Notes: generated by a model not told the origin, from the sequence alone. 32,000 bases of DNA from Pseudoalteromonas tetraodonis (GCF_002310835.1 NZ_CP011041.1:3300001-3332000); one strand, 5' to 3'; positions 6,488-32,000 are shown, counted from the first letter of the stretch. Numbers and translations: made by a program.

Positions 6488-7378
6488 ATGAGCGCATCAA
6501 CTCTATTCAACTTCACTAAGCCCGTTTCACTAATTAGCGGCATTTTATTACTCAGCGGTTGTGTATTTCACATATCGCCCAGTGTCGCATCAGTTAAACA
6601 AACCCAGCAGCTTTCACTACCAAGCAATAACCTTGAGCACCTAACGATATTAAGTGGTGCCGGTTCGCTCGATATTCAGGGCTCTAATACTGCAACCAAT
6701 ATTAGCGTTGATGCCATCATCTACACCGCCGACATTGACGATGAATACGAACTCACCCTTGAGAAAAGCGGTACACAAGCAAAACTTGTTGCACAAAATA
6801 CAAGTAATAATGGGATTAGCTTTTACAGCGGGCAATCACCAAGTATCAATTTAGTTGTTACCGTACCTAACACCCTAAATTTAGATATTAACGACGGCTC
6901 AGGCGATATTGTTATTAACGAGATGCAAAGCAATATTGATGTAAAAGATGGTTCTGGCAGCTTATCTATCAATGGTGCTAAAAGCCTAAATATTGATGAT
7001 GGCTCGGGCAGTATTTACGTAAAAAATGTGGTCGGCGACTTAGTATTAAATGACGGCTCAGGCAGCATTGATATTGATAATGTCAGTGGTAATGTCGCTA
7101 TTGAAGATGGCTCGGGCGAAATGCAAGTGACTAACGTAACAGGCGTATTAAATGTTGAAGATGGCTCGGGCGGCATAACTATTAAACATATTAAAGGCGC
7201 AGTCACCGTAGACGATAACTCAGGAGATATGTTGATTGAACATATTGGCTCAAGCGTGACGATTGAAGATGGCTCTGGCGATATTCGCGTTAATTACGCT
7301 AAAGGGCTAACAATTACAGAAGCAGGCTCTGGCGATGTTAGTATCGATAATATCTCTGGTTCAGTAAAGCTAGACTAA
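6488..7378 (+). CDS. Lipoprotein with a DGSG-type beta-solenoid repeat domain (DUF4097 / putative-adhesin-like)
   Basis: Lipobox LLLSG|C at residues 21-25. The C-terminal two thirds consist of consecutive 18-aa units with a DGSG(D/S)I core. Confidence 0.65.
   Translation: MSASTLFNFTKPVSLISGILLLSGCVFHISPSVASVKQTQQLSLPSNNLEHLTILSGAGSLDIQGSNTATNISVDAIIYTADIDDEYELTLEKSGTQAKLVAQNTSNNGISFYSGQSPSINLVVTVPNTLNLDINDGSGDIVINEMQSNIDVKDGSGSLSINGAKSLNIDDGSGSIYVKNVVGDLVLNDGSGSIDIDNVSGNVAIEDGSGEMQVTNVTGVLNVEDGSGGITIKHIKGAVTVDDNSGDMLIEHIGSSVTIEDGSGDIRVNYAKGLTITEAGSGDVSIDNISGSVKLD
6893..7375 (+). repeat. Nine tandem in-frame repeats of about 54 bp (18 aa) inside the lipoprotein gene
   Basis: Units read from the translation: DGSGDIVINEMQSNIDVK, DGSGSLSINGAKSLNID, DGSGSIYVKNVVGDLVLN, DGSGSIDIDNVSGNVAIE, DGSGEMQVTNVTGVLNVE, DGSGGITIKHIKGAVTVD, DNSGDMLIEHIGSSVTIE, DGSGDIRVNYAKGLTITE, AGSGDVSIDNISGSVKLD. 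Confidence 0.85.
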
Positions 7379-7406: not shown

Positions 7407-7437
7407 AAACGGTCAATTAATTGACCGTTTTTGGTTT
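7407..7437. terminator. Bidirectional terminator between convergent genes
   Basis: A 10-bp perfect stem (aaacggtcaa at 7407-7416, ttgaccgttt at 7421-7430) flanked by an A-run and a T-run. The stop codon of the minus-strand gene sits in the loop. Confidence 0.65.
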
Positions 7438-7941
7438 TGTATAATCAATGGTGTGGTCACAACTGCCATCGTTTTCACAATCATTTATTCCATCGCCATC
7501 GCTATCCCAGCTTGGGTGCATAGTTTTTACAGGCACGGCTACACCTGCATGTTTAATGATGGTTAACTTATAATCACTTGTTTCACCACGTCTCGCTGCA
7601 TTACGCATTAAATAAACTCGCACAATATAATCTCCATCTGTGCTGAGTTGATATTTAGCTTCATGCCCTTCTATTGAGCCAATAAATACGGCTTCATTAC
7701 TGTCTAAGGGCAAAATATTAAAGTAGTTACTTAAATTTGAAGGAGTCAGAGTCACATTCAGGATATCACCTGCTTTTGCACTAACTAAATAGTCATTAAA
7801 TTCATCACCAGTAATTTGCTGTTCAAGCTCAGCTCGCTGTGGTTCAAACTCAACCTTGTACTGTTGAGCTTGCACCGTTTGTGTAAACACCGCAGCAAAC
7901 ACAGTGGTCAGCATAATTTTTAAAAGCAGCTTAATACTCAT
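7417..7941 (-). CDS. Small secreted protein of unknown function with an Asp/Cys-rich C-terminal tail
   Basis: The track start at 8052 adds 37 aa with no signal peptide. ATG at 7941 has an AGGAA RBS and gives the signal peptide MSIKLLLKIMLTTVFAAVFTQTVQA|QQ. The tail is WDSDGDGINDCENDGSCDH. Confidence 0.6.
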   Translation of the reverse strand: MSIKLLLKIMLTTVFAAVFTQTVQAQQYKVEFEPQRAELEQQITGDEFNDYLVSAKAGDILNVTLTPSNLSNYFNILPLDSNEAVFIGSIEGHEAKYQLSTDGDYIVRVYLMRNAARRGETSDYKLTIIKHAGVAVPVKTMHPSWDSDGDGINDCENDGSCDHTIDYTKPKTVN

Positions 7942-8244
7942 TTTAGTTCCTATAAAAAACATATTATTAAATTTAATGGTACACAATAAAGTAATACCAA
8001 TTCGCTTAATTAAGTGAGCTATTTTGAGGGAAGGCAATCGTGTCGATAGCAAGGTAAAACTTTGTTATTTAGTTGTTCTAAAAGAGAAGTTTTTAACGCA
8101 ACTAACATCTGGTTTACCCGTTCAAAATGATTAAATAGTATTGCGGATTAGTATGCGTTAATAATGTTTCTTTCACAATTAACTCAAACTTAATTTATAG
8201 TAGTATCAAAATATAAATAACTCCTAACCTCAAGAGAGCACCCC

Positions 8245-10140
8245 ATGCTAGAAATTGCTTTAATTTATTTAGCCGCCGCCATTGTGGCTGTTCCTATTGC
8301 CAAACGACTTGGCTTAGGATCAGTACTGGGTTATTTAATTGCTGGCATACTAATTGGTCCCTATGCATTGGGAGTCGTAGGGGATCAAACCGATGTAATG
8401 CATTTTGCCGAATTTGGCGTAGTGATGATGCTATTTTTAGTCGGACTTGAACTACAACCCTCACGACTATGGAAGCTTCGGCACTCTATTTTAGGGCTTG
8501 GTGGCTTACAGGTGGTGCTAACTGCGGCGGTTATTTTTGCCTTTTGTTATTGGTTTTTTACCATGCATTGGCAAACCGCATTGGCCATTGGTTTAATGCT
8601 GGCACTTTCTTCTACCGCGATTGTATTGCAAAGCCTCGAAGAAAAAGGCTGGTTAAAGCAAGAAGCTGGGCAAAATGCATTTTCGGTTTTATTATTTCAA
8701 GATATTGCCATTATTCCTATTTTAGCGCTACTCCCCTTACTGGCCTTTGCTGCACCAAGTAGTTCAAAACAAATTAGCGATTCAATCATTGCTGACTGGC
8801 CTGTTTGGCAACAAGTAGGCGTTTCTGTAGCTGTTATTGCCGCTATTATTGCCGGCGGTAAATATGTTTCTGCGCCACTGTTTAGATACATCGCACAAAC
8901 TCACATGCGTGAAATATTCACTATTTTTGCATTGTTTTTAGTCGTGGCTATTTCGCTTGTAATGCACAGTATTGGCCTATCACCTGCTTTAGGTACTTTT
9001 TTAGCCGGTGTAGTATTGGCCGAAAGTGAATTTAGACACGAATTAGAAGCCGACATAGAGCCCTTTAAAGGCCTATTGCTAGGACTATTTTTTATCACTG
9101 TAGGGGCTTCAATTAATTTTGAGCTATTATTTAATCAATTTAGTACCGTGGTTGCTTTAGTTGCCTTATTAATTGTCATTAAAGCCTGCATTTTGTTTGC
9201 CCTTGCTGTCACATTTAAAATTAGCTCAAAGCAAAAACTATTGTTTACATTGGCACTAGCACAAGGTGGTGAATTTGCTTTTGTACTTTTAAGCGTGACC
9301 ACCACATTAAGTATTTTAACCCCAGAACAAACCAGTCTAGTGACCTTAGTGGTTGCGGTATCTATGTTGATAGCTCCTTTATTACTGATGCTGTATGAGC
9401 AAATACAAAAACGCAGTAGTAGCACTAAGCCTGAGTTTGATAAACCAGAACAAATAAATACCGCTAAACACGTAATTATTGCGGGCTATGGCCGCTTTGG
9501 GCAAATTATGGGACGTTTATTACATGCACAAGGCTACGAAATTACCGTACTTGATCACAGCCCAAGCCAAATAGAACTGCTGCGCCGCTTTGGTAACACC
9601 GTATTTTACGGTGATGCTGCTCGCCAAGAACTGCTTGAAGCCGCAGGCGCGCATACTGCACAAATGCTGGTTGTTGCGATTGATAACCCAGATAAAACCA
9701 TTGAAATTATTAAGCTGGCACATAAAAACTACCCACAATTAAAAATAGTGGCGCGCGCAATCGATCGTCGCCATGCGTATCAACTACTGAATCTAAAAGT
9801 GGATGCGTTTAACCGCGAAACCGTCGACTCAGCCATTAACTTAGCCATAGAATCACTGCAGCTACTTGGCAATAGCAAAGAAGACGCTGAGCGTGCTGGT
9901 AAATTATTTAGGGATCATGACCGTGCATCTGTGTTACAACTTTCTGAGCTTTGGGGAGATGATGCCAGCTACGGCGTTGCAGTACGCCAACGTATGGAAG
10001 ATTTAAAACAGGTATTACAGCAAGATAAGCAAGCACAGCAAAATTTAAATACCTGTGATGCCAACGATTATGAAAATGGCTTAACAGAAGACTCTGCTAA
10101 GCCCAAAAAACGACCTAATGATGATGTCCACCTTGAATAG
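8245..10140 (+). CDS. Glutathione-gated K+ efflux / CPA2 antiporter of the KefB/KefC type with a C-terminal RCK (TrkA-N) domain
   Basis: The N-terminus is nearly collinear with E. coli KefC as remembered (RLGLGSVLGYLIAGILIGP, HFAEFGVVMMLFLVGLEL, ALSSTAIVLQ, LLFQDIAIIP). Rossmann motif IIAGYGRFGQ. Confidence 0.88.
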   Translation: MLEIALIYLAAAIVAVPIAKRLGLGSVLGYLIAGILIGPYALGVVGDQTDVMHFAEFGVVMMLFLVGLELQPSRLWKLRHSILGLGGLQVVLTAAVIFAFCYWFFTMHWQTALAIGLMLALSSTAIVLQSLEEKGWLKQEAGQNAFSVLLFQDIAIIPILALLPLLAFAAPSSSKQISDSIIADWPVWQQVGVSVAVIAAIIAGGKYVSAPLFRYIAQTHMREIFTIFALFLVVAISLVMHSIGLSPALGTFLAGVVLAESEFRHELEADIEPFKGLLLGLFFITVGASINFELLFNQFSTVVALVALLIVIKACILFALAVTFKISSKQKLLFTLALAQGGEFAFVLLSVTTTLSILTPEQTSLVTLVVAVSMLIAPLLLMLYEQIQKRSSSTKPEFDKPEQINTAKHVIIAGYGRFGQIMGRLLHAQGYEITVLDHSPSQIELLRRFGNTVFYGDAARQELLEAAGAHTAQMLVVAIDNPDKTIEIIKLAHKNYPQLKIVARAIDRRHAYQLLNLKVDAFNRETVDSAINLAIESLQLLGNSKEDAERAGKLFRDHDRASVLQLSELWGDDASYGVAVRQRMEDLKQVLQQDKQAQQNLNTCDANDYENGLTEDSAKPKKRPNDDVHLE

Positions 10141-10843
10141 CCTCACCTTGAGGATTATAAAAACCGGTGGCGCCGTGCTCTATAAAGCCTAGGTTAATCA
10201 TTTTTGCTAAAAATGGGTCGCTTTCGTTATCGCCAATGTCGGCATAGTCGGTGGTTTGAAAGTTATCCCATTTTGCAAACTGAGCCTTAATAGCTGGTGT
10301 GTCATTTTGCACCGCGTCTAAGCTAAGTGACATGCTTGCTTTATTCGCTAGGTTACTAATGCTAAATGTTTTTACCAGTTTTGAATGGGTAAAAAATGCC
10401 AAGTTATACTGAGAGTTATTTTCTTCTAAGCTGTAATTTTTTATTTCGTTGCAGCCTTCACCTTCAGTGCTCACTAATGTCATTTTTTCAATAAGATGAT
10501 TATCTACCAGCTGTACTTTTGCACTCCAGTTTTGCACTCCTTGCACCTCTGAGGGCTGATATTCAATACCGCGCTGCTGCGCATTAAAATAACGAATAGG
10601 CCGTATTTGATTGTTGCTCGTATGCTGCCAAAGCTCTGTTATAACTTGGCTTTGGTGCGCCACTTGTTGCTCATTTCGCCAAAGGGCGAGAGTTTGGCTG
10701 TTTTCCTTATTATTTTTAAGCGTTTGTGGAGCCTTATTAATAATAGTGTAAGTGGCTTTTAATACCTGTGGATTTATATCGCACTGCTCAGCAAAGCTGC
10801 TTGCGCTAAATAATGCGCTCATTATTAAAAATACTTTTTTCAT
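10115..10843 (-). CDS. Orphan secreted protein (no family recognised), C-terminal GGHHH
   Basis: Clean signal peptide MKKVFLIMSALFSASSFA|EQ. A 242-aa ORF with its own upstream region. Its 3' end overlaps the kef 3' end by 26 nt. Confidence 0.55.
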   Translation of the reverse strand: MKKVFLIMSALFSASSFAEQCDINPQVLKATYTIINKAPQTLKNNKENSQTLALWRNEQQVAHQSQVITELWQHTSNNQIRPIRYFNAQQRGIEYQPSEVQGVQNWSAKVQLVDNHLIEKMTLVSTEGEGCNEIKNYSLEENNSQYNLAFFTHSKLVKTFSISNLANKASMSLSLDAVQNDTPAIKAQFAKWDNFQTTDYADIGDNESDPFLAKMINLGFIEHGATGFYNPQGEAIQGGHHH

Positions 10844-10962: not shown

Positions 10963-12759
10963 TTATTGCGCTACTTTTTCATCCGCGGCTTTTACAAAGT
11001 CAGCGGCAAAGTCCATAACATGGAATAAAAAGCTTTGCTCATTAGTACCTGTTACTAAATGCGCCCCTGGGCCCATTGCATACACACCTACATCTTCGCC
11101 TGCGTGAGTTTCTGATGATAGTGGCACAAGTGCCTCTTGGTGAAAACCTGGCGTTGTTGTATCAACATTACTTAAATCAACACGCCCTGTAACGGGTGCT
11201 GCTAAGTAAGATGCATCAGCATCGGTTTCTGCACCTAGGTCTCTGTAGCCTAAACCATTAGTGTAACCAACTGTAGTATAAGGCATATCGTCGGCAGCAA
11301 GGCTGGGCTCTGTTTGCCCTACACCAACCACTTTACCTAAAATTGGGTTACCGCGTTTAGGGTAGCCCGCAATGGTAAATACGTGACTGTGATCGGCTGT
11401 CACTACAATTAGCGTCTCTTCTGGGTTGGTGTTTTCCATCGCTACTTTTACTGCTTTAGCCAGCTCTACAGTATCGTTCAGTGCGTTGTATGCATTACCC
11501 GCATGATGCGCGTGGTCAATACGACCCGACTCAACCGTTAAGAAAAAGCCTTTATCGTTGTTATCAAGCACATCAATCGCTTTTTCGGTCATTTGTGATA
11601 ATGAAGGCTCGCCTGCAATATCATTGCCACGGTCGGCTTCGTATTGCATGTGAGATTCATTAAATAAACCAAATACACGCTCAGTTGTGGTTGCATCAAT
11701 CGCAGCAAAACCCGCTTGATCCATCACATAAGCCCCATTTGGATATTGCGTTTTCCACTCGGCGGTTAAGTCGCGATTATCTGTACGATCGCCCTCTACA
11801 GCACTAACTGCGTCAGCAGAGTTAAACGCGGCATCTTTTGGTAAAAAGTGACGACGCCCGCCACCCATAACCACTTCAATTCCGTCTACATCAATACCAC
11901 TAAAACGTGCTTCTAGGTTCTTTTCAAAGTTAACCAGCTGTGAGGCAATATCTTCACAATTAGCTGACTCAGAAGCAGGCATATCTGAAATATCTTCCCA
12001 GTTACGGTCTGCCGATTTAGCGTAGGTTGCCGCAGGTGTTGCATGGGTAATACGTGCAGTAGAAACAATACCCGTAGACTTACCGGCAATCTCAGCCAGC
12101 TCTAATGACGTAACAAGCTCATGTCCTTTGCCTGATGCACAACTACCACGTTCAACCGCTTCGTCTATACCAATTACACCCACATCGGTTTTTACACCTG
12201 AGGCCATTGCCGTCATTGTACCGGCAGAATCTGGCGTTTGTGCATCCACGTTATAGGTTTTTACAAACCCAGAGTACGGCATGGTTTCAAAGCTTAATTG
12301 GTGATCTTCACCCATTTCACCCTGTAATTGCCCCGCTAAAATACGGGCAGCTGTCACAGTAGAAATACCCATTCCATCGCCAACAAACAAGATCACATTT
12401 TTAGCTTTACCCGATTCAGTTACCACTTTACTTGCAGCATCTTGCGCGCCGGCGAGCTTAGTTTGTGCATCACTAAACCATACGTTATTGCTAAGAGACG
12501 CCAGCTGCTCGCTCGTTAATGAGGTGGCTGGGTCGTTACAGACTAAGTTAGTGTGCGTTACTTCGTTGCTCTCTAATTGCCCGTTTGTATTGGTATCAAC
12601 ACCGCTTTGTGTTTCTACGCCGCCATTGATACATTGTGCTGAGCCTACAGCAATTGGGAGATCGACCGCTAAAATATTATTGCTGTTTTTGTCGTCATCA
12701 CTCGAACACCCCGTTAATGCGACCATTACTGCTAAAGAAAGTACTGTTAATTTATTCAT
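10963..12759 (-). CDS. phoA: Alkaline phosphatase (PhoA family), lipoprotein paralog with an N-terminal extension
   Basis: VILFVGDGMGIST, active-site DSAGTMTA, metal-ligand motifs GRIDHAHH and TADHSH. ATG 12759 gives MNKLTVLSLAVMVALTG|CSS (lipobox). The track start at 12771 is 4 codons upstream and is also possible. Confidence 0.9.
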   Translation of the reverse strand: MNKLTVLSLAVMVALTGCSSDDDKNSNNILAVDLPIAVGSAQCINGGVETQSGVDTNTNGQLESNEVTHTNLVCNDPATSLTSEQLASLSNNVWFSDAQTKLAGAQDAASKVVTESGKAKNVILFVGDGMGISTVTAARILAGQLQGEMGEDHQLSFETMPYSGFVKTYNVDAQTPDSAGTMTAMASGVKTDVGVIGIDEAVERGSCASGKGHELVTSLELAEIAGKSTGIVSTARITHATPAATYAKSADRNWEDISDMPASESANCEDIASQLVNFEKNLEARFSGIDVDGIEVVMGGGRRHFLPKDAAFNSADAVSAVEGDRTDNRDLTAEWKTQYPNGAYVMDQAGFAAIDATTTERVFGLFNESHMQYEADRGNDIAGEPSLSQMTEKAIDVLDNNDKGFFLTVESGRIDHAHHAGNAYNALNDTVELAKAVKVAMENTNPEETLIVVTADHSHVFTIAGYPKRGNPILGKVVGVGQTEPSLAADDMPYTTVGYTNGLGYRDLGAETDADASYLAAPVTGRVDLSNVDTTTPGFHQEALVPLSSETHAGEDVGVYAMGPGAHLVTGTNEQSFLFHVMDFAADFVKAADEKVAQ

Positions 12760-12770
12760 GTGAGCCGCCA

Positions 12771-14360
12771 TTATTGCTGAGTTAGTTCAAGAGCTTGATT
12801 AATTAAATGAAATACAACGTTTTGCTCAATAACACCTTGAGCTAGGTGAGCACCCGGTCCGGTTGCATGCAGTGAAATATCTTCACCTGCGTGTGTTTCA
12901 GAGCTCAGTGGTACCGTGGTTTCTTGGTGAAAACCTGGCGTTGTTGTATCAACACCATTTAGCTCAACACGTCCTGCAACCGCAGCTGTTTCATAGCTTG
13001 CGTCCGCATCCGTTTCATCGATTAAGTTTCTAAAACCGAGGCCATTTGCATAACCTACTGTGGTGTATGGCATGTTATCAGCAGCTAGCGTTGGTGTAGT
13101 TTGCCCTACAGCAACCACCTTACCTAAAATTGGGTTACCACGTTTAGGGTAACCTGCAATAGTAAATACATGGCTATGGTCGGCAGTAACTAAAATAAGG
13201 GTTTCTTCTGGATTGGTGTTATCAACGGCAGCTTGTACTGCTTTTGCAAATTCAATGGTGTCATTAAGTGCATTATATGCGTTACCCGCATGGTGAGCAT
13301 GGTCAATGCGCCCCGACTCAACCGTTAAGAAAAACCCTTTTTCGTTTTTACCCAGTACATCAATGGCTTTGGTGGTCATCTCGGTAAGTGAAGGCTCGCC
13401 TGCTATATCGTTGGCACGGTCAGCTTCGTATTGCATGTGCGATTCGTTAAATAAACCAAATACTTTAGTGGCGTCATCGGCAATGCTATTAAAACCGGCT
13501 TCATCCATCACATAAGTGCCATTTGGATACTGTGTTTGCCACTCAGTAACAAGGTTACGCTCATCGGTACGATCGCCTTCTACGGCGCTCATAGCGTCAG
13601 TAGAATTTGCCGCGGCCTCTTTTGGTAAAAAGTGACGACGGCCGCCACCCATTACAAAATCTAAGCCATCAACATCGGTTCCGACAAAGCGTGCTTCTAG
13701 GTTTTTTTCAAAATTAACCAGCTGTGAGGCAATATCTTCACAGCCAGCATTAACAGCCGCTTCGGGCATGTCTGAGATATCTTCCCAGTTGCGATCAGCC
13801 GATTTAGCATAGGTTGCCGCAGGCGTTGCATGGGTAATGCGGGCAGTAGAGATAATTCCTGTTGCTAGGCCTTTAATTTCAGCAAGTTCAGTGGCTGTAA
13901 GTAACTCATTACCAGCCACCGTTGAGCACTCACCGCGCTCAATATCTTCATCAACACCAATAACACCCACATCGGTTTTTACACCTGAGATCATGGCCGT
14001 CATGGTGCCTGCAGAGTCTGGCGTTTGTGCATCCACATTATAGGTTTTAACTTGCGCAGAGTAAGGGAACTGCTCAAAGCTTAAATAGCCTTCTTCGCCA
14101 AGCTGATTATTGCGTTGACCTTGTAAAATACGCGCTGCGGTTAAGGTAGAAATACCCATGCCATCGCCTACAAATAAAATAACATTTTTAGCTTTAGTGT
14201 TTTTAATTGCCTGCGCTTGCGTTGTTTTTGTTGTTAGTTTTGCTTGGGCAGCGCTGTACCAGCTGCTGTCTTTTTGACTTTGCGGTAAAACATTGGCATG
14301 ACTAACGGCACTAAACGCACAGGTTAGTGCGATTGCCGCAGCAACTTTTTTAATTTTCAT
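12771..14360 (-). CDS. phoA: Alkaline phosphatase (PhoA family), secreted paralog
   Basis: The same catalytic motifs as its neighbour. Signal peptide MKIKKVAAAIALTCAFSAVSHA. Long identical peptide runs are shared with the downstream paralog (ARITHATPAATYAKSADRNWEDISDMP, CEDIASQLVNFEKNLEARF). Confidence 0.92.
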   Translation of the reverse strand: MKIKKVAAAIALTCAFSAVSHANVLPQSQKDSSWYSAAQAKLTTKTTQAQAIKNTKAKNVILFVGDGMGISTLTAARILQGQRNNQLGEEGYLSFEQFPYSAQVKTYNVDAQTPDSAGTMTAMISGVKTDVGVIGVDEDIERGECSTVAGNELLTATELAEIKGLATGIISTARITHATPAATYAKSADRNWEDISDMPEAAVNAGCEDIASQLVNFEKNLEARFVGTDVDGLDFVMGGGRRHFLPKEAAANSTDAMSAVEGDRTDERNLVTEWQTQYPNGTYVMDEAGFNSIADDATKVFGLFNESHMQYEADRANDIAGEPSLTEMTTKAIDVLGKNEKGFFLTVESGRIDHAHHAGNAYNALNDTIEFAKAVQAAVDNTNPEETLILVTADHSHVFTIAGYPKRGNPILGKVVAVGQTTPTLAADNMPYTTVGYANGLGFRNLIDETDADASYETAAVAGRVELNGVDTTTPGFHQETTVPLSSETHAGEDISLHATGPGAHLAQGVIEQNVVFHLINQALELTQQ

Positions 14361-15833: not shown

Positions 15834-16304
15834 TTAGAAAGGCTTGTAAGGTAAGAACTTACCATCAAGCGTAATTACAGCACGTGAGCCACCTTCAGGA
15901 TCTTCAACTTTTTTCATATCTACTTTAAAATTAATTGCACTAATAATACCGTCGCCAAACTGCTCATGAACTAATGCCTTAAACGTTGTACCGTATACTT
16001 GCATCATTTCATAAAAACGGTAAATAGTCGGATCAGTTGGCATATTGTTTTCGACACTACCACGTAGTGGAATAGCTTTAAGTAACTCAACCGCACTTGC
16101 ATCAAGGCCCAGCGTTTGTGCCACTTTTTCAGCGACCTCTGCAGGCAATGGGTGCTGGCCTAATAAAGCCGCCGTCACGTAAACGTCGCTTAAACCTGTG
16201 CCCTCTGCAATTTGTTCAAACGACAGATTTTTTTCTGCTTTTGCAGCAATAATTATATCGGTTAATGCTAGGCGCGCCGTGTTGCTCACTTGAGATTGGA
16301 TCAT
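15834..16304 (-). CDS. cynS: Cyanase (cyanate hydratase) CynS
   Basis: 156 aa, the same length as E. coli CynS and near-collinear with it as I recall it (MIQSQ..., [45 protein letters not shown]). Confidence 0.95.
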
Positions 16305-16328
16305 AATAGTACCTCTTACAATGGTTGG

Positions 16329-16988
16329 TTAAACAGCTACAGGAAGCTGAATTGGATATGCACGAACATCGGTATGTTCGGCAAGGGAAACAAACGTATT
16401 CGTTGCGCCATTTAAAGCTTCAATGCCGCCAGATTCGATATCATAAACCCAGCCATGTAATGCCAAGCGACCTTCGCCAAGCGCAAGACGCACCGATGGA
16501 TGGGTTTTAATGTTTTCAAGTTGTGCGATAACGTTTTCGCGTACCATAGCTTCAATGCGCTCACGTTCATTTGCGTGATTGCGCGCTTCATTGACAATGC
16601 GAGCTGAGTCGGCGTAACGCAGCCAACTGCCAACAGCAGGCATGTTATCCATGCACTTACAGGTTGCTATTGCCGTCATTGCTCCGCAATCAGAATGGCC
16701 GCAAATAACCACATCGGTTACTTGCAGTGCAGTAACTGCATATTCAACTGATGCAGAAACCCCGCCAGGCTCAGGCCCGTAAGATGGGACGATGTTTCCG
16801 GCATTGCGAATAACAAATAATCCACCAGGTTCACGTTGTGTTACGAGCTCAGGCACTAAACGACTATCAGAACATGAAATAAACAAAGTCCGTGGATTTT
16901 GCTTAGTAGCCAAATTTTTAAATAAATCGGCACGCTCTGGGTATGCATCACTTTGAAACTTTAAAAAACCTTCAATGATATCTTTCAT
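16329..16988 (-). CDS. cynT: Beta-class carbonic anhydrase CynT
   Basis: Beta-CA zinc-ligand motifs CSDSRLVPE and HSDCGAM. First gene of the cynTSX arrangement. Confidence 0.92.
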
Positions 16989-17053
16989 AACGGGTGTCTC
17001 TATATTATCGATGAGATGAATATTACGCCCGCTTTTTAATAAGGTAAAAGACT

Positions 17054-17085
17054 GGTATATTATGATACCGATAAGAAATACTTAT
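17054..17085. promoter_or_regulatory. Candidate CynR operator(s) in the cynR/cynT divergent region
   Basis: Two inverted repeats: GGTAT-N6-ATACC (17054-17069) and ATAAG-N5-CTTAT (17071-17085). The second contains a LysR-type T-N11-A motif. The whole intergenic region is only 105 bp. Confidence 0.35.
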
Positions 17086-17093
17086 AGTTAGCT

Positions 17094-17987
17094 ATGATAC
17101 TTCGCCACATCAATTACTTTTTGGCCGTTGCCAAGCACAAAAACTTCACCAAAGCAGCAGCGTCCTTATATGTGTCTCAACCTGCGTTGTCGCAACAAAT
17201 TAAACAGCTTGAAGAAACCCTCGGTGCACCTTTATTTGACCGCTCAGGGCGCAGCGTAAAGTTAACCGATGCGGGTGAGGTATATGCTCGTTATGCACAC
17301 AGAGCCTTGCAGGATTTAGAAGAAGGTAAGCGGGCGATTCATGATGTACAAAACCTCAGCCGAGGTTCATTGCGAGTGGCTATTACGCCGACGTTTACTA
17401 CTTATTTTATTGGGCCATTAGTCAACGCATTTCATCAGCACTACCCCAACATCACCTTAAGCATGGAAGAAATGTCGCAAGAACGCATGGAAAATCGTTT
17501 GTTAGATGATGAGTTTGATGTAGGTATAGCCTTTGAAGGCAACCATAGTGCAGACATACACGCCCAAACTTTATTACAAGAGACACTCGCTTTAGTAGTA
17601 AATAAACACCATGCTTTAGCTAGCAAACACCGTATTGACCTGAGCACTTTAAATGAACAATCACTGGTGCTGCTCAGTAATGAGTTTGCAACTCGCGAAC
17701 AAATTGAACGTCATTGTCGCCAACACAAGGTGCAGCCTAATGTACTTATGGAAGCCAATTCACTCAGTGCCGTTATTGAAATAGTGCGCCATACACAACT
17801 AGCTACTTTGCTTCCCTCTAACATAGCGAGTAAACACGAAGAGTTAGTTGCCATTACTCTTGCACCTTCATTATTAAAACGTACCGCGGTGTTACTACAG
17901 CGACAAGATGCTTACCAAAGTGCCGCAACAGCCGCTTTTATAGAGCTGGCTCACAGCACCGCTGAGGCAATAAGCTCAAACATATAA
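17094..17987 (+). CDS. cynR: LysR-family activator of the cyn operon, CynR
   Basis: Strong collinearity with E. coli CynR as remembered ([62 protein letters not shown]). Divergent from cynT. Confidence 0.9.
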
Positions 17988-24049: not shown

Positions 24050-25447
24050 ATGACTAAACTATTCAAATTAAAATTAATTGCACTGGCAATAAGCAGCACA
24101 TTAATCACCGCTTGTGGTGATGCAGAAACAAACATTGTTGAAAAAGACCCAATAGAAGTACCTGATGACGGCCACGATCATGGCGATGGTGGCGACCACG
24201 GTGATGAATACACTATTGATTCATTAGGTAGGCTTGCGATACTTGCTGGCGATAGCAACGAAGCGAACTTTTTCGACTTAGACGACAATGAGCTTCTTGA
24301 TACATTCACTCTTACTAATGATTCAAACACGCTATCGTCGTCACCTGATTTTCGTTATGCCGTGATTGCTAGCCGCGCTCAAGATTACCTCGGCTTTATA
24401 GACGGTGGCTTATGGCGTGAAGATCACGGCGCACACCTTCATGATTACGAACAAAGCCCTGAGTTTAGCAGTTATGAGCTAACTAGCGGCAGTCGCCCTA
24501 CTCACTTGGTAAAGCACGATGGTAAATTAGCGGTATTTTACGATGGTGATGCAGCATCAGGCACAACTGCGTCTGTTGAAATATTAACAGATAACGACAT
24601 AACAAACGCAACAGCGACCTTACCTGGTATTAGTTACGACATTAATATGCATGGTGTAGCAGAACCTCGTGGAGAGCATTTATTAGCGACCATTCGCCGC
24701 GATGATGCACAGAGCTCATCAAACGCTAAAATTTTGCCGGATCAGGTAGGTGTTTATCACTTTCATGATGGCGAATACGAACTTGAACAAACGTTAGAGT
24801 TAACATGCCCTGATTTGCACGGCGCAGCACAAAACCATGATTACGTAGCCTTCGGCTGTAGTGACGGTGTGCTATTAGCCCATCAACATGATGACGAGTA
24901 CGAAGCTGAAAAAATAGCGAACATTGCAGCCGTTGGCGATTTACGCATTGGTAGTATTTATGGCCACGAAGATAGCGAGGCCTTTATTGGCGTAGCGTCT
25001 GGTCACGGCGGCGGCCCTGCAGTGCTCTTAAGCATTAACCCTGCGGAAGCTGAAATGGAAGAACTAGAATGGCAACTAGCCGATGGCGCAAGCGCTGTTT
25101 CTTACTCTTTCTCAGCGAATGGCGAGCACTTTTTAGTTTTAGACAGCCTAGGCTTTTTAAATGTGCTTGAGGCGCATGCGCACGACGATCACATACACTG
25201 GGAGCTAGCAGGTCAAGTTGATATTACACAAGAAGATGTAACAACAATGCCTGAAGGCATGAAGTTTAGTATGACAGTAGCGCAAAATGGTCAGTTTGCT
25301 TACGTAGCCGACCCAATAGCCCAACACGTTGTGCAAGTACACCTAGAAGACTTAGAGATTGAAGGCGAGTTAGAACTTACATTCCCACCAGCCGCGATCA
25401 CTTGGTTAGGTATTGCACAAGAGGAAGAACACGCACACGAACATTAA
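24050..25447 (+). CDS. His-rich lipoprotein, probably a beta-propeller, co-transcribed with the ZnuD-like receptor
   Basis: Lipobox LITA|CG with Gly at +2. N-terminal DDGHDHGDGGDHGDE, internal HAHDDHIH, C-terminal EEEHAHEH. Recurring strand patterns (YAVIASRAQDYLGFID, KLAVFYDGD, DYVAFGCSDGVLLA, HFLVLDSLGFLNVLE, FAYVADPIAQHVVQVHL) resemble YncE/YVTN-type blades. RBS AAAGGAAA. It starts 32 nt after the TBDR stop. Confidence 0.6.
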   Translation: MTKLFKLKLIALAISSTLITACGDAETNIVEKDPIEVPDDGHDHGDGGDHGDEYTIDSLGRLAILAGDSNEANFFDLDDNELLDTFTLTNDSNTLSSSPDFRYAVIASRAQDYLGFIDGGLWREDHGAHLHDYEQSPEFSSYELTSGSRPTHLVKHDGKLAVFYDGDAASGTTASVEILTDNDITNATATLPGISYDINMHGVAEPRGEHLLATIRRDDAQSSSNAKILPDQVGVYHFHDGEYELEQTLELTCPDLHGAAQNHDYVAFGCSDGVLLAHQHDDEYEAEKIANIAAVGDLRIGSIYGHEDSEAFIGVASGHGGGPAVLLSINPAEAEMEELEWQLADGASAVSYSFSANGEHFLVLDSLGFLNVLEAHAHDDHIHWELAGQVDITQEDVTTMPEGMKFSMTVAQNGQFAYVADPIAQHVVQVHLEDLEIEGELELTFPPAAITWLGIAQEEEHAHEH

Positions 25448-28906: not shown

Positions 28907-30208
28907 TTATCTTTTTCTCCAGCCGCTCCATACGTCATCTTCTTGGTTGGCTTTGTTTTTCTTCTTTTTCTTACCGGTACCTTCAGGCTTTGCCATTGGC
29001 TTATCATTTTTAAGTGCTTGTGCGGCATCAAGGTTGGCTTGGTTTACAGCAAAGCCTGTAACCTCTTCGCGCTCTAAACGTAGTTTGTTTTTCTTTTCAA
29101 TAATTCTAAAGTGATGAAAGTCTTCATAATCAATTAACGATAACGCTAAACCTACTTCACCGGCACGGCCGCTTCGGCCAATACGATGCATGTAATCAGC
29201 AGGGCTGCGCGGTAAGTTAAAGTTAATTACTACTGGTAGCTTTTCAATATCTAAACCACGGGCTGCAATATCGGTAGCAATAAGCACTTCAATCTCACCC
29301 GCTTTAAACTTTTCGATTACCCGAGAACGCTCGCTTTGGCCTTTATCACCATGGAATACTTGTGCATTCACGCCACGCTTTTCAAGTTTGCCCGCTAAAT
29401 GCTCACAGTCTTTTTTAGCATTGACAAAAATCAGCGCTTGGCGCCATTTGTGCTGCTTAATTAAGTGCGCTAAAACCGTGGTTTTCTCGCCTTTATTAAC
29501 CGTAAAAACGCGCTGTACAAGCGTGCTCTCTTCTTTACTTTGTACTTGTATTTCAACAGGGTTGGTTAACAGCTCTTGCGTTAAAAGCGTTACTTGCTCT
29601 GGGAAAGTCGCTGAAAACAACATGGTTTGCTTTTTAGCAGGCATAAGCGCTAATAAGTTAGCCAACTCTTCGGTAAAGCCTAAGCTTAATAAGCGGTCGG
29701 CTTCATCAAGCACTAAGGTATTTACTTTATCGAGCTTAATGGCGTTGCTTGATATTAAGTCGAGTAAACGCCCTGGGGTTGCTACGATAATATCGGCACC
29801 ACCACGTAGTGCCTGCATTTGGGTATTAACCGACACACCACCAAATACCGCCACCGTTTTAATGGCGCCATTAAAGTTAGCAGAATACGATTTAACATTA
29901 TCAGCTACTTGCACTGCCAACTCACGGGTAGGTACCAAAATAAGCCCTGAAACAAAGTTATCTTTGCTCGGCGTTTTATTCGCGCCTTTTGCTAAAAATA
30001 GCGTTTGTAGCATAGGCAAAGCAAAGGTTGCTGTTTTACCTGAGCCGGTATTTGCCCCCGCAATTAAATCGCTACCAGCAAGTACATTTGGGATCGCCTT
30101 AGCTTGAATTGGCGTAGGTTGGCTATATTGCAAATCAGTTAAACGAGCTTGTAGCTCTGGAATAAGGCCAAGATCGTTAAAAGTACTAGGGCTTGCGGCT
30201 GAGGTCAT
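28907..30208 (-). CDS. rhlE: DEAD-box ATP-dependent RNA helicase (RhlE-like) with a basic C-terminal tail
   Basis: Q motif TPIQ, Walker A ANTGSGKT, DEAD (VLDEADRLL), SAT, HRIGRSGRAG. The tail is GTGKKKKKNKANQ. Confidence 0.88.
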   Translation of the reverse strand: MTSAASPSTFNDLGLIPELQARLTDLQYSQPTPIQAKAIPNVLAGSDLIAGANTGSGKTATFALPMLQTLFLAKGANKTPSKDNFVSGLILVPTRELAVQVADNVKSYSANFNGAIKTVAVFGGVSVNTQMQALRGGADIIVATPGRLLDLISSNAIKLDKVNTLVLDEADRLLSLGFTEELANLLALMPAKKQTMLFSATFPEQVTLLTQELLTNPVEIQVQSKEESTLVQRVFTVNKGEKTTVLAHLIKQHKWRQALIFVNAKKDCEHLAGKLEKRGVNAQVFHGDKGQSERSRVIEKFKAGEIEVLIATDIAARGLDIEKLPVVINFNLPRSPADYMHRIGRSGRAGEVGLALSLIDYEDFHHFRIIEKKNKLRLEREEVTGFAVNQANLDAAQALKNDKPMAKPEGTGKKKKKNKANQEDDVWSGWRKR

Positions 30209-30469
30209 ATTTATTACGGGCTTATTGCTAAAAAGTAGCCTGTAATTTTAGCGTATTTAGCAGCTATTAAGTAGAGGTTAGTGATCTAAATAAAATGCAT
30301 CTTGTTTTATTAAACGATGATTCACTGAATATCACTTTGCATTAATACTATTTTTCACATACATCAATCATTACAAATAATAGCTGAACACGCTGTATTA
30401 TTGATTTCAACATTTCAAGTGTGTTATTTTTGCGGCCTGATGGATTAATTTTAGATACAAGGAAATGTC

Positions 30470-31558
30470 ATGTCTCAATTTGATTTATGTTTCAATACGA
30501 AAAGTCGAGCAAGTTTACCTTTTAACAGTAATGACTTAGAGCAATTAAAGCGATTTAGAGAGGATAACCCTCATATTATAGGTAACTTTATACCTCAAGG
30601 AACCCCGTTCATTTTAAGAACTCCACAATCTGGGGATATGAGTGATTTCAGGCGCTCTCGTCCTGACATAGCTTGTGCACTTGATAATACGGTGTCTTGG
30701 CCTGAGCATACAAAGAGAAATGTCAGTACTATAGTAAACAACTTCGGTGATGAAGATGCTTTGGCTATTGCCGCGCTATACGATGCGGAAATATCTCCAT
30801 ATGTTGATAAAGTAAGAGGTTTAACGAGTCAACAAGTTCTTGGAAGAAATCTTGATACCTTGACTGCCACTGGCGCAGCACTTACTTCATTAGAGTCAAG
30901 CCAAGTGAGATTAAGTACATTTGGAAAAGCGATTCTAAAATACCAAACTAGCTTAATTGAAATTAGAAAAGCATCGCAGAACAAGCAACCTAAATTAGAA
31001 TTAATCAAACTAGGTAACAAAGCTAAGCAAGCCCATCTAGAGTTAAACACTGAATTTAAAAGAGAAATGGTTAAATTCAAAGGCAAAGTGAAAGCATCTG
31101 CACGGGGTAATATCTGGTCTAATGCGCAACGAGGCATAGATACAGCAAGAAGCGCAAGAAGTTCAGCTCCCTTGCAATTAACTTCTTTAGCTAACATACA
31201 GCACTTACGTAAATTAGAGCAAGGATCCAACATTGCAGGAAAGTTTGTTATTGCGATTGATGCTGGTCTTCGAGCTGATAGCGTTTATGACGATTACAAA
31301 GCAGGTAAAGACTGGCAGCGCAGTGCAGTAAGGGAAGCTACAGGTTTTGGTTTAGGGACAGCTGCAGGAGCCTATGTTGGCGGTACGACTATAACCGCAG
31401 GGGTAGGAATAGCAATTGCAATGGGTCCAGTTGGCTGGGTAATTCTTATAGGTGTAGGCTTGGGGGCTGGTTATGCTGCAGGTAAAGTTGGTGATGCTGT
31501 TGGAAAGGGTTTCTCAGGTCTAGTTTATGACCTTAGCTCTAATATAAGCTGGTTTTAA
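30470..31558 (+). CDS. Hypothetical protein; candidate membrane pore-forming toxin (glycine-zipper / colicin-like C-terminal domain)
   Basis: RBS AAGGAAA before the ATG. The central region is Lys-rich and amphipathic-helical. The C-terminal hydrophobic Gly/Ala-rich hairpin of about 50 aa is GFGLGTAAGAYVGGTTITAGVGIAIAMGPVGWVILIGVGLGAGYAAGKVG. Arg codons are enriched in AGA/AGG and Ile codons in ATA compared with neighbouring genes. Confidence 0.35.
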   Translation: MSQFDLCFNTKSRASLPFNSNDLEQLKRFREDNPHIIGNFIPQGTPFILRTPQSGDMSDFRRSRPDIACALDNTVSWPEHTKRNVSTIVNNFGDEDALAIAALYDAEISPYVDKVRGLTSQQVLGRNLDTLTATGAALTSLESSQVRLSTFGKAILKYQTSLIEIRKASQNKQPKLELIKLGNKAKQAHLELNTEFKREMVKFKGKVKASARGNIWSNAQRGIDTARSARSSAPLQLTSLANIQHLRKLEQGSNIAGKFVIAIDAGLRADSVYDDYKAGKDWQRSAVREATGFGLGTAAGAYVGGTTITAGVGIAIAMGPVGWVILIGVGLGAGYAAGKVGDAVGKGFSGLVYDLSSNISWF

Positions 31559-31561
31559 GCT

Positions 31562-31924
31562 ATGTATCTTATGCCTGAAACTTTTTACTGGATAATAACT
31601 GGGCCATTTATAATTGCTTTTCTTATTTCAGCTTTGTGCTTCACTCGTATTTCAATGAAACACATAGAGAAGAAAATGCGTGAGGAAGGGATACATGAGC
31701 CACTTTGGGATAAAGGACTGGGCATAAGAGTGAGCATGTATGGCAAAGTAATAAGGCGGCAAAAACCCGCAAAGGCGACGGTTGTTAATGACGAAGCAAT
31801 TTTACGACACGCCAGACCTATCGATTTAATTTTAGCTCGCACAATGCATTACTCTTTCGTAATTATGATGACCCTAGCTGTATATGGTTATTTTGCATAT
31901 GACTTAGGTGAGCGCGCTTATTAA
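31562..31924 (+). CDS. Small two-TM membrane protein; candidate cognate immunity protein
   Basis: It starts 3 nt after the upstream stop. TM helices are FYWIITGPFIIAFLISALCF and YSFVIMMTLAVYGYFAY. No family recognised. Confidence 0.3.
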   Translation: MYLMPETFYWIITGPFIIAFLISALCFTRISMKHIEKKMREEGIHEPLWDKGLGIRVSMYGKVIRRQKPAKATVVNDEAILRHARPIDLILARTMHYSFVIMMTLAVYGYFAYDLGERAY

Positions 31925-32000
31925 TTTTGTGCCTAAATTATAATCGTTAGGTGTTATGTTGATAAATCATCTTGCACCTTAATATATGCTTACTTCTCTG

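Follow-up and report, generated by a model that had tools for sequence, protein, structure and literature searches.

A putative toxin-immunity cassette with a colicin-like pore-forming domain in Pseudoalteromonas tetraodonis and related marine bacteria

At the right-hand end of a 32,000-nt stretch of the Pseudoalteromonas tetraodonis genome (GCF_002310835.1 NZ_CP011041.1:3300001-3332000; here the window, numbered from its first letter), two adjacent genes raise the question of what a protein annotated only as hypothetical and its small membrane partner do for their host. A first-pass annotation of this DNA, made from the sequence alone, had read them as a horizontally acquired pore-forming toxin and its membrane immunity protein. 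Open reading frame (ORF) calling reproduced the coordinates of both genes as given in that annotation, as well as the 3-nt gap between them, and for brevity they are referred to below as the toxin and immunity genes:

30470-31558 (+): candidate toxin gene, ATG start, 362 amino acids (aa), from the ORF call
31562-31924 (+): candidate immunity gene, ATG start, 120 aa, two transmembrane (TM) helices, from the ORF call

The 362-aa product is identical to WP_096038860.1 / UniProt A0AA37W2G1, annotated as "MULTISPECIES: hypothetical protein [Pseudoalteromonas]". On the evidence presented below, the two genes very probably form a toxin-immunity pair, and the toxin likely acts by forming pores; the whole explanation, in which a horizontally acquired interbacterial cassette would supply a colicin-like pore former as cargo of a type VI secretion system (T6SS), is favoured with less assurance.

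Both genes are atypical in codon usage, as the first-pass annotation had claimed, when compared by Fisher tests with the 24 other ORFs of the window. In the toxin gene, AGA and AGG make up 12 of 21 Arg codons (more than half, as had been noted) vs. 30 of 343 (8.7%) in the other ORFs (p = 1.6e-7), and ATA makes up 11 of 24 Ile codons vs. 20% (p = 0.008); its GC content at third codon positions, 0.276, is the minimum for the window. The immunity gene shares the bias, with AGA/AGG at three of nine Arg codons (p = 0.04) and ATA at 7 of 14 Ile codons (p = 0.013).

The toxin would consist of a novel N-terminal domain of ∼120 residues followed by a C-terminal, colicin-related helical domain, with the following parts:

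30470-30829 (+): N-terminal alpha/beta domain (residues ∼1-120), from the AlphaFold2 model
31028-31498 (+): colicin-type pore-forming region (residues 187-343), from hhalign against colicin pore domains
31325-31504 (+): Gly/Ala-rich hydrophobic hairpin (residues 286-345), from composition, conservation and colicin alignment

The pore-forming region contains basic amphipathic helices, a conserved D264-x3-R268 and G-(D/N)-W282, the hydrophobic hairpin, and a conserved D342. The hairpin with repeated small-residue spacing after Lys-rich helices, described in the first-pass annotation, is borne out by composition: Gly and Ala account for 48% of residues 286-345, in which GxxxG spacing occurs 7 times and small-xxx-small spacing 17 times; the stretch before it, residues 150-285, has a basic excess (26 K+R vs. 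12 D+E); and the hairpin turn, P320-x-G322-W323, is near-invariant across the family. Residues 286-345 are the predicted membrane-inserting element.

Single-sequence searches of Pfam, NCBIfam, and the PDB returned only noise (MlaC, CmpA, ATPase c-subunit). A family profile (A3) built from 115 full-length sequences was searched against 177,635 PDB sequences, and colicin B ranked first (E = 0.001), with the match covering pore-domain residues 398-506; colicins A, S4, and Ib and pyocin S5 stood lower in the list, matched by the same profile segment. Additionally, colicin genes were taken from PLSDB to give two independent pore-domain alignments, one of eight A-type sequences (colicins B, R, S4, N, and relatives) and one of seven E1-type sequences (E1, K, Ia, Ib, and relatives). 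By hhalign, A3 matched the A-type alignment with a probability (Prob) of 94.2% and E = 1.2e-7 over 149 columns (residues 187-343 to 31-193 of 200), the E1-type alignment with Prob 93.9% and E = 1.6e-7 (residues 243-343 to 108-194 of 205), and the two combined with Prob 95.5% and E = 1.4e-8. Reversed and 20 column-shuffled controls gave Prob ≤0.8% and E ≥0.07, and the positive control, A-type against E1-type, gave Prob 99.9%. The colicin-like layout proposed at first pass is recovered by these profile methods, with contributions to the match both from the non-hydrophobic helices taken separately (P = 0.003) and from the hairpin by itself (P = 0.002). Residues 286-345 align with the colicin helix 8-9 hairpin, and G279-K-D-W282, the hairpin with its P320-x-G-W turn, and D342, all near-invariant, align with their colicin counterparts. 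The parallel with colicin E1 that had been drawn by eye recurs in the E1 alignment, in which hhalign pairs IAGKFVIAIDAGLRADSVYDDYKAGKDW with ITGHVSFGYDVVSDILKIKDTGDW, around ...KAGKDW / ...KDTGDW; the colicin E1 peptide quoted at first pass is 100% identical to cea on ColE1-type plasmids. Because of the PDB profile, hhalign, and control results, the C-terminal 170-230 residues are probably a remote, glycine-zipper-rich relative of the colicin pore-forming domain.

The likeness to colicins and pyocin S5 comprises the profile-profile homology (94-95%) over the C-terminal two-thirds of the pore domain; with colicins, the window toxin also shares the order of amphipathic helices, G-(N/D)-W, hydrophobic hairpin, and acidic residue near the C-terminus, as well as a dedicated inner-membrane immunity protein, here predicted, encoded beside the toxin gene. 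The differences are also many. Colicins have translocation and receptor domains, a lysis gene, and an SOS box, whereas the window toxin has none of these; they are plasmid-borne, whereas the window toxin is chromosomal; the window hairpin is far richer in Gly and Ala (glycine-zipper-like) than colicin hairpins; the immunity gene is co-directional with the toxin gene, whereas it lies on the opposite strand in every fetched colicin locus with an annotated immunity gene; and the hosts are marine Alteromonadales, Vibrionales, and Cellvibrionales rather than the Enterobacterales or Pseudomonas that host colicins and pyocins.

A hydrophobic hairpin might also resemble colicin by convergence, in which case the two genes could encode a non-toxic membrane-associated pair with, for example, a stress or envelope function. 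Such a pair would fit the failure of Pfam, NCBIfam, and Foldseek to give a confident assignment, and the hairpin is indeed biased in composition (for the colicin B domain in the PDB search, a bias of 7.0 against a score of 18.7 bits). However, the profile match runs colinearly through 87-149 columns that include the non-hydrophobic helices, which match on their own, and it is lost on reversal or shuffling; the patchy distribution, variable sites, immunity arrays, and rampant pseudogenisation described below are, moreover, unlike those of a housekeeping pair. We therefore consider a non-toxic pair extremely unlikely.

The 120-aa protein, described at first pass as having two TM segments, has hydrophobic segments near both ends, namely TM1 (∼residues 7-32) and a C-terminal hydrophobic helix (∼residues 95-114), separated by a conserved loop with the motif F-x-R-I-S-x-K-x-I-E-+-x-M...W-D-x-G-x-G-x-R...R-H-A-R-x-x-D. 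None of 22 members of the immunity family matched Pfam, and an alignment of these 22 sequences gave Prob ≤0.5% by hhalign against the colicin immunity proteins Cbi, Csi, and Cei and proved unrelated to YkfM (Tmi) and DUF1240. The close downstream coupling that had been taken as typical of a toxin-immunity pair holds in nearly all relatives: among 56 tabulated related loci, only 4 lack the 2-TM gene after the toxin gene, and three of these four are contigs that end at or just past the toxin gene. The coupling persists where toxin identity is as low as ∼32%, and it is seen in different genera.

Immunity genes are also the more diverse of the two partners, with 38 sequence clusters vs. 25 for the toxin gene, and are present in one to five copies per locus, often as two to five tandem, diverged copies. 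Positions 30641-32000 of the window are 97.7% identical to positions 8080-9441 of locus L020, which represents the same chromosomal site in Pseudoalteromonas sp. RW-H-Ap-1 and continues with a second 120-aa immunity copy (9462-9824), an esterase gene, and glmS. Since a second copy follows there, an 82%-identical immunity paralogue probably starts ∼20 bases past the end of the window, just beyond position 32000. In several loci, remnants of the toxin C-terminus (profile positions ∼180-330 or ∼290-330) lie between successive immunity genes, each remnant then followed by its own immunity gene:

L010, 11558-11713: remnant of the hairpin region
L025, 9383-9559 and 9933-10367: remnants of the hairpin region
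L027, 9353-9511: remnant of the hairpin region
L028, 9138-9287: remnant of the hairpin region
L065, 4503-4640: remnant of the hairpin region
L072, 2219-2395: remnant of the hairpin region
L074, 1667-2191 and 2538-2696: remnants of the hairpin region

Such arrays, in which displaced C-terminal (CT) modules stand with immunity genes, are by analogy a hallmark of polymorphic toxin loci. Loci of the Rhs and contact-dependent inhibition (CDI) systems likewise alternate C-terminal toxin remnants with immunity genes and are likewise mosaic at the C-terminal tip between close relatives; in comparison with the 92%-identical protein P0002, the identity of the window toxin falls to 85% over the hairpin and to 59% over the final 17 residues, vs. 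95-98% elsewhere. Unlike the large conserved delivery scaffold of Rhs and CDI proteins, however, the window toxin is small, and its N-terminal domain was never found on another toxin in the metagenome loci described below.

The toxin gene itself is frequently lost. Approximately 26 of ∼54 toxin copies have been inactivated independently of one another, through nonsense, frameshift, or deletion lesions, with the immunity genes still open; the lesions include a 91-bp deletion in L020, which occupies the same chromosomal site as the window pair. This pattern was noted for the toxin homologues of the following related loci:

L018-L023, L026-L033, L051-L053, and L058
L061-L065, L068, and L072-L076

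Recoding of the in-frame stops was considered and rejected; TAA, TAG, and TGA all occur, at different codons, and are thus ordinary nonsense mutations. Retention of immunity after loss of the toxin has one sensible reading, namely that the danger comes from neighbouring cells.

The close family comprises 25 clusters (28-99% identity) in Pseudoalteromonas, Shewanella, and Vibrio, and a profile search (E ≤0.001) recovered 411 representative clusters at 50% identity, mostly of 310-370 aa. Genome matches were also obtained in Colwellia, Oleispira, Saccharophagus, Cellvibrio, Marinagarivorans, Rheinheimera, Marinobacter, and Oceanobacter. All named members are annotated "hypothetical protein", the 115 full-length members have no consistent Pfam or NCBIfam assignment, and the family is so far undescribed. 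Cluster members P0252 and P0246 are fragments of the Pseudoalteromonas protein that come from a Parvamoeba rugata transcriptome and from a 261-bp "Paraburkholderia sp. SIMBA_050" contig; both datasets were most likely contaminated.

The cassette lies between different housekeeping genes in different lineages. In several Pseudoalteromonas it is downstream of glmS, and the window (28907-32000) and L009, L013, L016, L017, and L020 share a variable glmS-downstream stretch with three arrangements relative to the esterase gene. The stretch downstream of glmS is the classical attTn7 neighbourhood; no transposase or integrase adjoins the glmS-linked Pseudoalteromonas cassettes. In P. gelatinilytica and P. 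arabiensis, the cassette lies between aroC and a spermidine-synthase-like gene; in Vibrio it adjoins metG; and in Pseudoalteromonas strain THAF3 it is carried on a chromid. The codon bias together with these different insertion sites supports the horizontal acquisition that had been suggested from codon usage at first pass. In Shewanella japonica (L010 4689-12834), the cassette stands beside a Gabija-like pair (OLD-TOPRIM/AAA_15 + UvrD), a DUF2726 gene, and a DUF1240 gene, in what looks like a mixed defence and competition islet.

This S. japonica context brings in an intracellular explanation, in which the pair would be a membrane toxin-antitoxin (TA) or abortive infection (Abi) module and a phage would free the pore former from its membrane antitoxin and so depolarise the host. 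The small two-gene unit of toxin plus membrane partner suits such a module, as does the proximity of Gabija-like genes in a variable island, and a local PADLOC match to LeoBC was obtained (E = 1.1e-5; residues 183-344, positions 31016-31501, vs. profile positions 392-503 of 601). However, this match is limited to the helical and hairpin stretch and, by Pfam, the GTPase domain is absent, so identity with LeoBC, a dynamin-like defence protein, was rejected; the match probably reflects the resemblance of a helical stalk plus membrane hairpin. Distant family members also match LeoBC. A defence island was seen in one of >25 contexts, the diverged immunity arrays with displaced toxin remnants are a signature of interbacterial polymorphic toxins rather than of Abi, and frequent toxin loss with immunity kept fits only a threat from other cells, all of which makes a TA or Abi module highly unlikely. 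PHROGs returned weak tape-measure or membrane-protein matches, which were set aside as there is no phage context.

The N-terminus of the toxin, MSQFDLCFNTKSRAS..., has by direct reading no hydrophobic core of a signal peptide, as had been noted at first pass. AlphaFold2, run from the 115-sequence alignment, gave a mean predicted local distance difference test (pLDDT) of 73, with values of 83-95 over residues 1-110, and modelled the N-terminal domain as a small beta-sheet (strands 4-8, 13-15, 40-42, and 46-50) plus helices; Pfam and NCBIfam have no match for this domain, and Foldseek found no fold neighbour in the PDB. The domain may serve in loading or targeting. It contains Cys7 (30488-30490) and Cys69 (30674-30676), the only cysteines of the toxin, both invariant in the close family, and a Cys7-Cys69 disulfide forming in the target periplasm is conceivable by analogy with Ssp4, which has been shown to depend on DsbA (PMC5792426).

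T6SS cargo delivery is the likeliest export route, at what we regard as an even chance. It is favoured because the toxin lacks a signal peptide, the translocation and receptor domains for colicin uptake, and a lysis partner; because orphan two-gene effector-immunity units at a distance from T6SS genes are usual for marine T6SS cargo effectors, such as Tme, RIX, and Ssp4-like proteins (PMC7046647, PMC10435454, PMC12669606); because the related species P. carrageenovora (PMC7046647 supplement) and P. fuliginea (PMC11882849) have complete T6SS clusters; and because the S. japonica islet includes, with the cassette, a Tmi-type gene of DUF1240, the main Tme-immunity family (PMC7046647). The toxin would accordingly be an orphan cargo effector of a T6SS encoded elsewhere in the genome and would reach the periplasmic face of the target inner membrane. 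There the Gly/Ala hairpin (286-345) would insert and the flanking basic amphipathic helices would follow, forming an ion-conducting pore that would collapse the membrane potential. In the producer, the 120-aa protein would sit in the inner membrane and block the cognate toxin through helix-helix contact with its C-terminal region, and extra tandem immunity copies would protect against variant toxins of relatives.

The genes around the pair do not themselves point to a route, and the first-pass annotation, which had left delivery open, finds its caution justified, as secretion genes were seen nearby neither in the window nor in related loci. For the source genome, the T6SS gene check covered the 32-kb window, in which no secretion-system, phage, or mobile-element genes were found. 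Within 6-10 kb of the pair, likewise, neither the window nor >25 related loci showed an integrase or exporter gene, tblastn detected no Hcp in any locus, and T6SS families were not recurrent among 114 neighbour ORFs from 14 loci, judged by the best 25 families.

The toxin could alternatively be a diffusible bacteriocin that kills by the same pore, with the N-terminal domain serving in receptor binding or uptake and with release by vesicles, lysis, or an unlinked exporter. The colicin-like killing domain suits this explanation, as do the absence of linked T6SS genes from every examined locus, the constant association of the N-terminal domain with the same toxin domain, as expected of a dedicated uptake module, and the two invariant N-terminal cysteines, which befit an extracytoplasmic protein. 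However, a signal peptide, a Gly-rich disordered domain with a TolB or TonB box, a coiled-coil receptor domain, a lysis gene, and a LexA box are all absent; 120 residues are very small for both receptor binding and outer-membrane translocation; and the immunity gene runs in the same direction as the toxin gene and is translationally close to it, contrary to the opposite-strand arrangement in annotated colicin loci. A diffusible bacteriocin is thus rather unlikely, and delivery as T6SS cargo is the route preferred here.

Several results weigh against a colicin-like pore former exported by a T6SS. The Pfam Colicin model (PF01024) does not match the window protein at E ≤10 and matches 2 of the 115 family members, weakly (best E = 0.022). 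The AlphaFold2 model consists of long extended helices over residues 130-285 rather than a 10-helix globule, and it is of low confidence in the hairpin (pLDDT <50 over 298-342, and unreliable there). A Foldseek search of this pLDDT-73 model against the PDB found no colicin or other neighbour for any part (best E = 0.83); an earlier model from 19 close homologues (pLDDT 54) was discarded as too poor, its Foldseek search being meaningless. No Hcp, VgrG, PAAR, adaptor, or other T6SS gene was found in the 32-kb window by Pfam, T6SS genes were not seen near the pair in >25 related loci, and the toxin has no T6SS marker domain (MIX, FIX, or PAAR) by Pfam or NCBIfam. Additionally, in 30 of 30 metagenome loci, recovered with a search pattern that reaches relatives down to ∼33% identity, the N-terminal domain was joined to the same C-terminal domain, intact or interrupted; as it is always on the same toxin domain, it does not behave as a shuffled module, unlike typical trafficking domains. 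Lastly, toxicity and protection are what we infer from sequence. Since it fails the Pfam Colicin model, the toxin is probably a remote relative and not a classical colicin; the latter was rejected on this threshold, on the absence of translocation and receptor domains, lysis gene, and LexA box, and on the co-directional and unrelated immunity gene.

Among known T6SS effectors, VasX, TpeX, Tke5, and BTH_I2691 (NCBIfam NF041559, BTH_I2691_fam, T6SS pore-forming effectors) share with the window pair a colicin-related inserting C-terminal domain and a membrane immunity gene downstream on the same strand. The NF041559 model was matched weakly by 5 of the 115 family members, in line with the colicin profile results, and residues 247-337 of the window protein weakly match its profile positions 734-818 of 858. 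VasX, TpeX, and Tke5, however, are proteins of 850-1,100 aa with an N-terminal MIX domain, usually encoded beside vgrG or hcp, whereas the window toxin has 362 aa, no MIX domain, and no adjacent T6SS genes in the examined loci; its size and the absence of MIX rule out their type of architecture.

The Ssp4-like T6SS pore-forming effectors, represented by Serratia marcescens Ssp4 (SMDB11_3980; PMC12669606), also resemble the window toxin. They are of similar size (331 vs. 362 aa), have a ∼113-residue N-terminal region followed by a helical membrane-inserting domain (PMC12669606), and are encoded at orphan loci with a small downstream membrane immunity gene; their "marine group" includes Pseudoalteromonas, Shewanella, Vibrio, Marinobacter, and Rheinheimera, as here, and no PDB structural neighbour has been reported for them either (PMC12669606). 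The three essential cysteines of Ssp4 (47, 123, and 165) differ from C7 and C69 of the window toxin, however, and Sip4 has four TM helices whereas the window immunity protein has two. The window protein A0AA37W2G1 and its close relatives A0A1W6W9F0, A0ABM6JHD1, and A0ABX1HSX7 are absent from the published Ssp4 list (Dataset EV2, hidden Markov model score >100); a distant relative from V. nigripulchritudo, P0159, may correspond to U4K1N1 of that list. The two families, likened here through published descriptions only, might be distantly related, which we suggest tentatively.

The Tme/Tmi pairs (Vibrio parahaemolyticus Tme1; PMC7046647) are likewise orphan two-gene units of marine hosts, with a toxin of ∼300 aa, a C-terminal hydrophobic segment flanked by acidic residues, and a membrane immunity protein. 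Their near-invariant DxxK motif, however, is not conserved here (K276 is variable in the family), and their immunity families, YkfM and DUF1240, are those found above by hhalign to be unrelated to the window immunity protein. Membership of Tme was rejected on the lack of DxxK and on hhalign against E. coli Tme WP_000908057.1 (Prob 1.5-1.9%, with one Tme branch compared).

The DNA flanking the two genes holds the following features:

30209-30469 (+): upstream spacer, common to the toxin gene and the divergent DEAD-box helicase gene
30354-30381 (+): sigma-70-like site, TTCACA-16-AATAAT, the sole such site in the upstream spacer
30459-30464 (+): Shine-Dalgarno-like hexamer AAGGAA, read from the sequence
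31925-32000 (+): spacer running out of the window, from comparison with L020

Promoter-like matches in the upstream spacer are no more numerous than expected from shuffled sequence, and the sigma-70-like site is therefore a candidate promoter. A LexA box (CTGT-N8-ACAG) is absent from 30209-30469, and window ORF calls show no lysis-type gene beside the pair. The first-pass annotation had taken an AT-rich upstream region of 260 bp as a further sign of transfer; the spacer (261 bp) is indeed AT-rich, at 29.5% GC, but 11 other intergenic spacers in the window have 28-37% GC, so its composition is ordinary for the window and uninformative on foreign origin.

The other genes of the window are ordinary chromosomal genes, among them TonB-dependent receptors, a Tricorn-like protease, and the DEAD-box helicase divergent from the pair. 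At 10963-14360 (-), two alkaline phosphatase (PF00245) genes lie in tandem, with products of 602 and 529 aa, the first with an extra N-terminal DUF7151, and genes for a cyanase, a beta-carbonic anhydrase, and a divergent LysR regulator at 15834-17987 are arranged like a cyn operon. Four ORFs have no Pfam match at E ≤1e-5, namely 24050-25447 (+), 6488-7378 (+), 7417-8052 (-), and 10115-10843 (-), of 465, 296, 211, and 242 aa, respectively; the 465-aa ORF lies downstream of a TonB-dependent receptor gene with a CarboxypepD_reg domain.

What is known of pore-forming colicin domains comes chiefly from large enterobacterial bacteriocins carried on plasmids, together with a handful of giant T6SS effectors of the MIX type. 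The window toxin would add a 40-kDa version that is encoded on the chromosome and widely distributed among marine bacteria, and both its N-terminal domain and its immunity family would be new. It could be the founding example of a family of minimal colicin-fold toxins of marine Gammaproteobacteria with their own N-terminal delivery domain and 2-TM immunity, diversification by C-terminal displacement that leaves behind orphan cassettes of hairpin plus immunity gene, and export independent of known colicin or T6SS marker modules, although we hold this broader view at somewhat less than even. If it is correct, the N-terminal domain would represent a new kind of signal for secretion or loading, and the family would form an evolutionary link between colicins, glycine-zipper effectors, and small orphan pore formers of the T6SS, Ssp4 among them; were it a distant Ssp4-like branch, it would give the Ssp4-like family, now without structural relatives, an evolutionary anchor in the colicins. 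The pair would also offer a compact model for colicin-type hairpin insertion and its neutralisation, as well as a candidate for a new loading or targeting domain. In the immunity arrays, the displaced C-terminal remnants, and the decay of ∼50% of the toxins, these marine bacteria would hold a natural record of an arms race, and hundreds of proteins now called "hypothetical" would gain an annotation.

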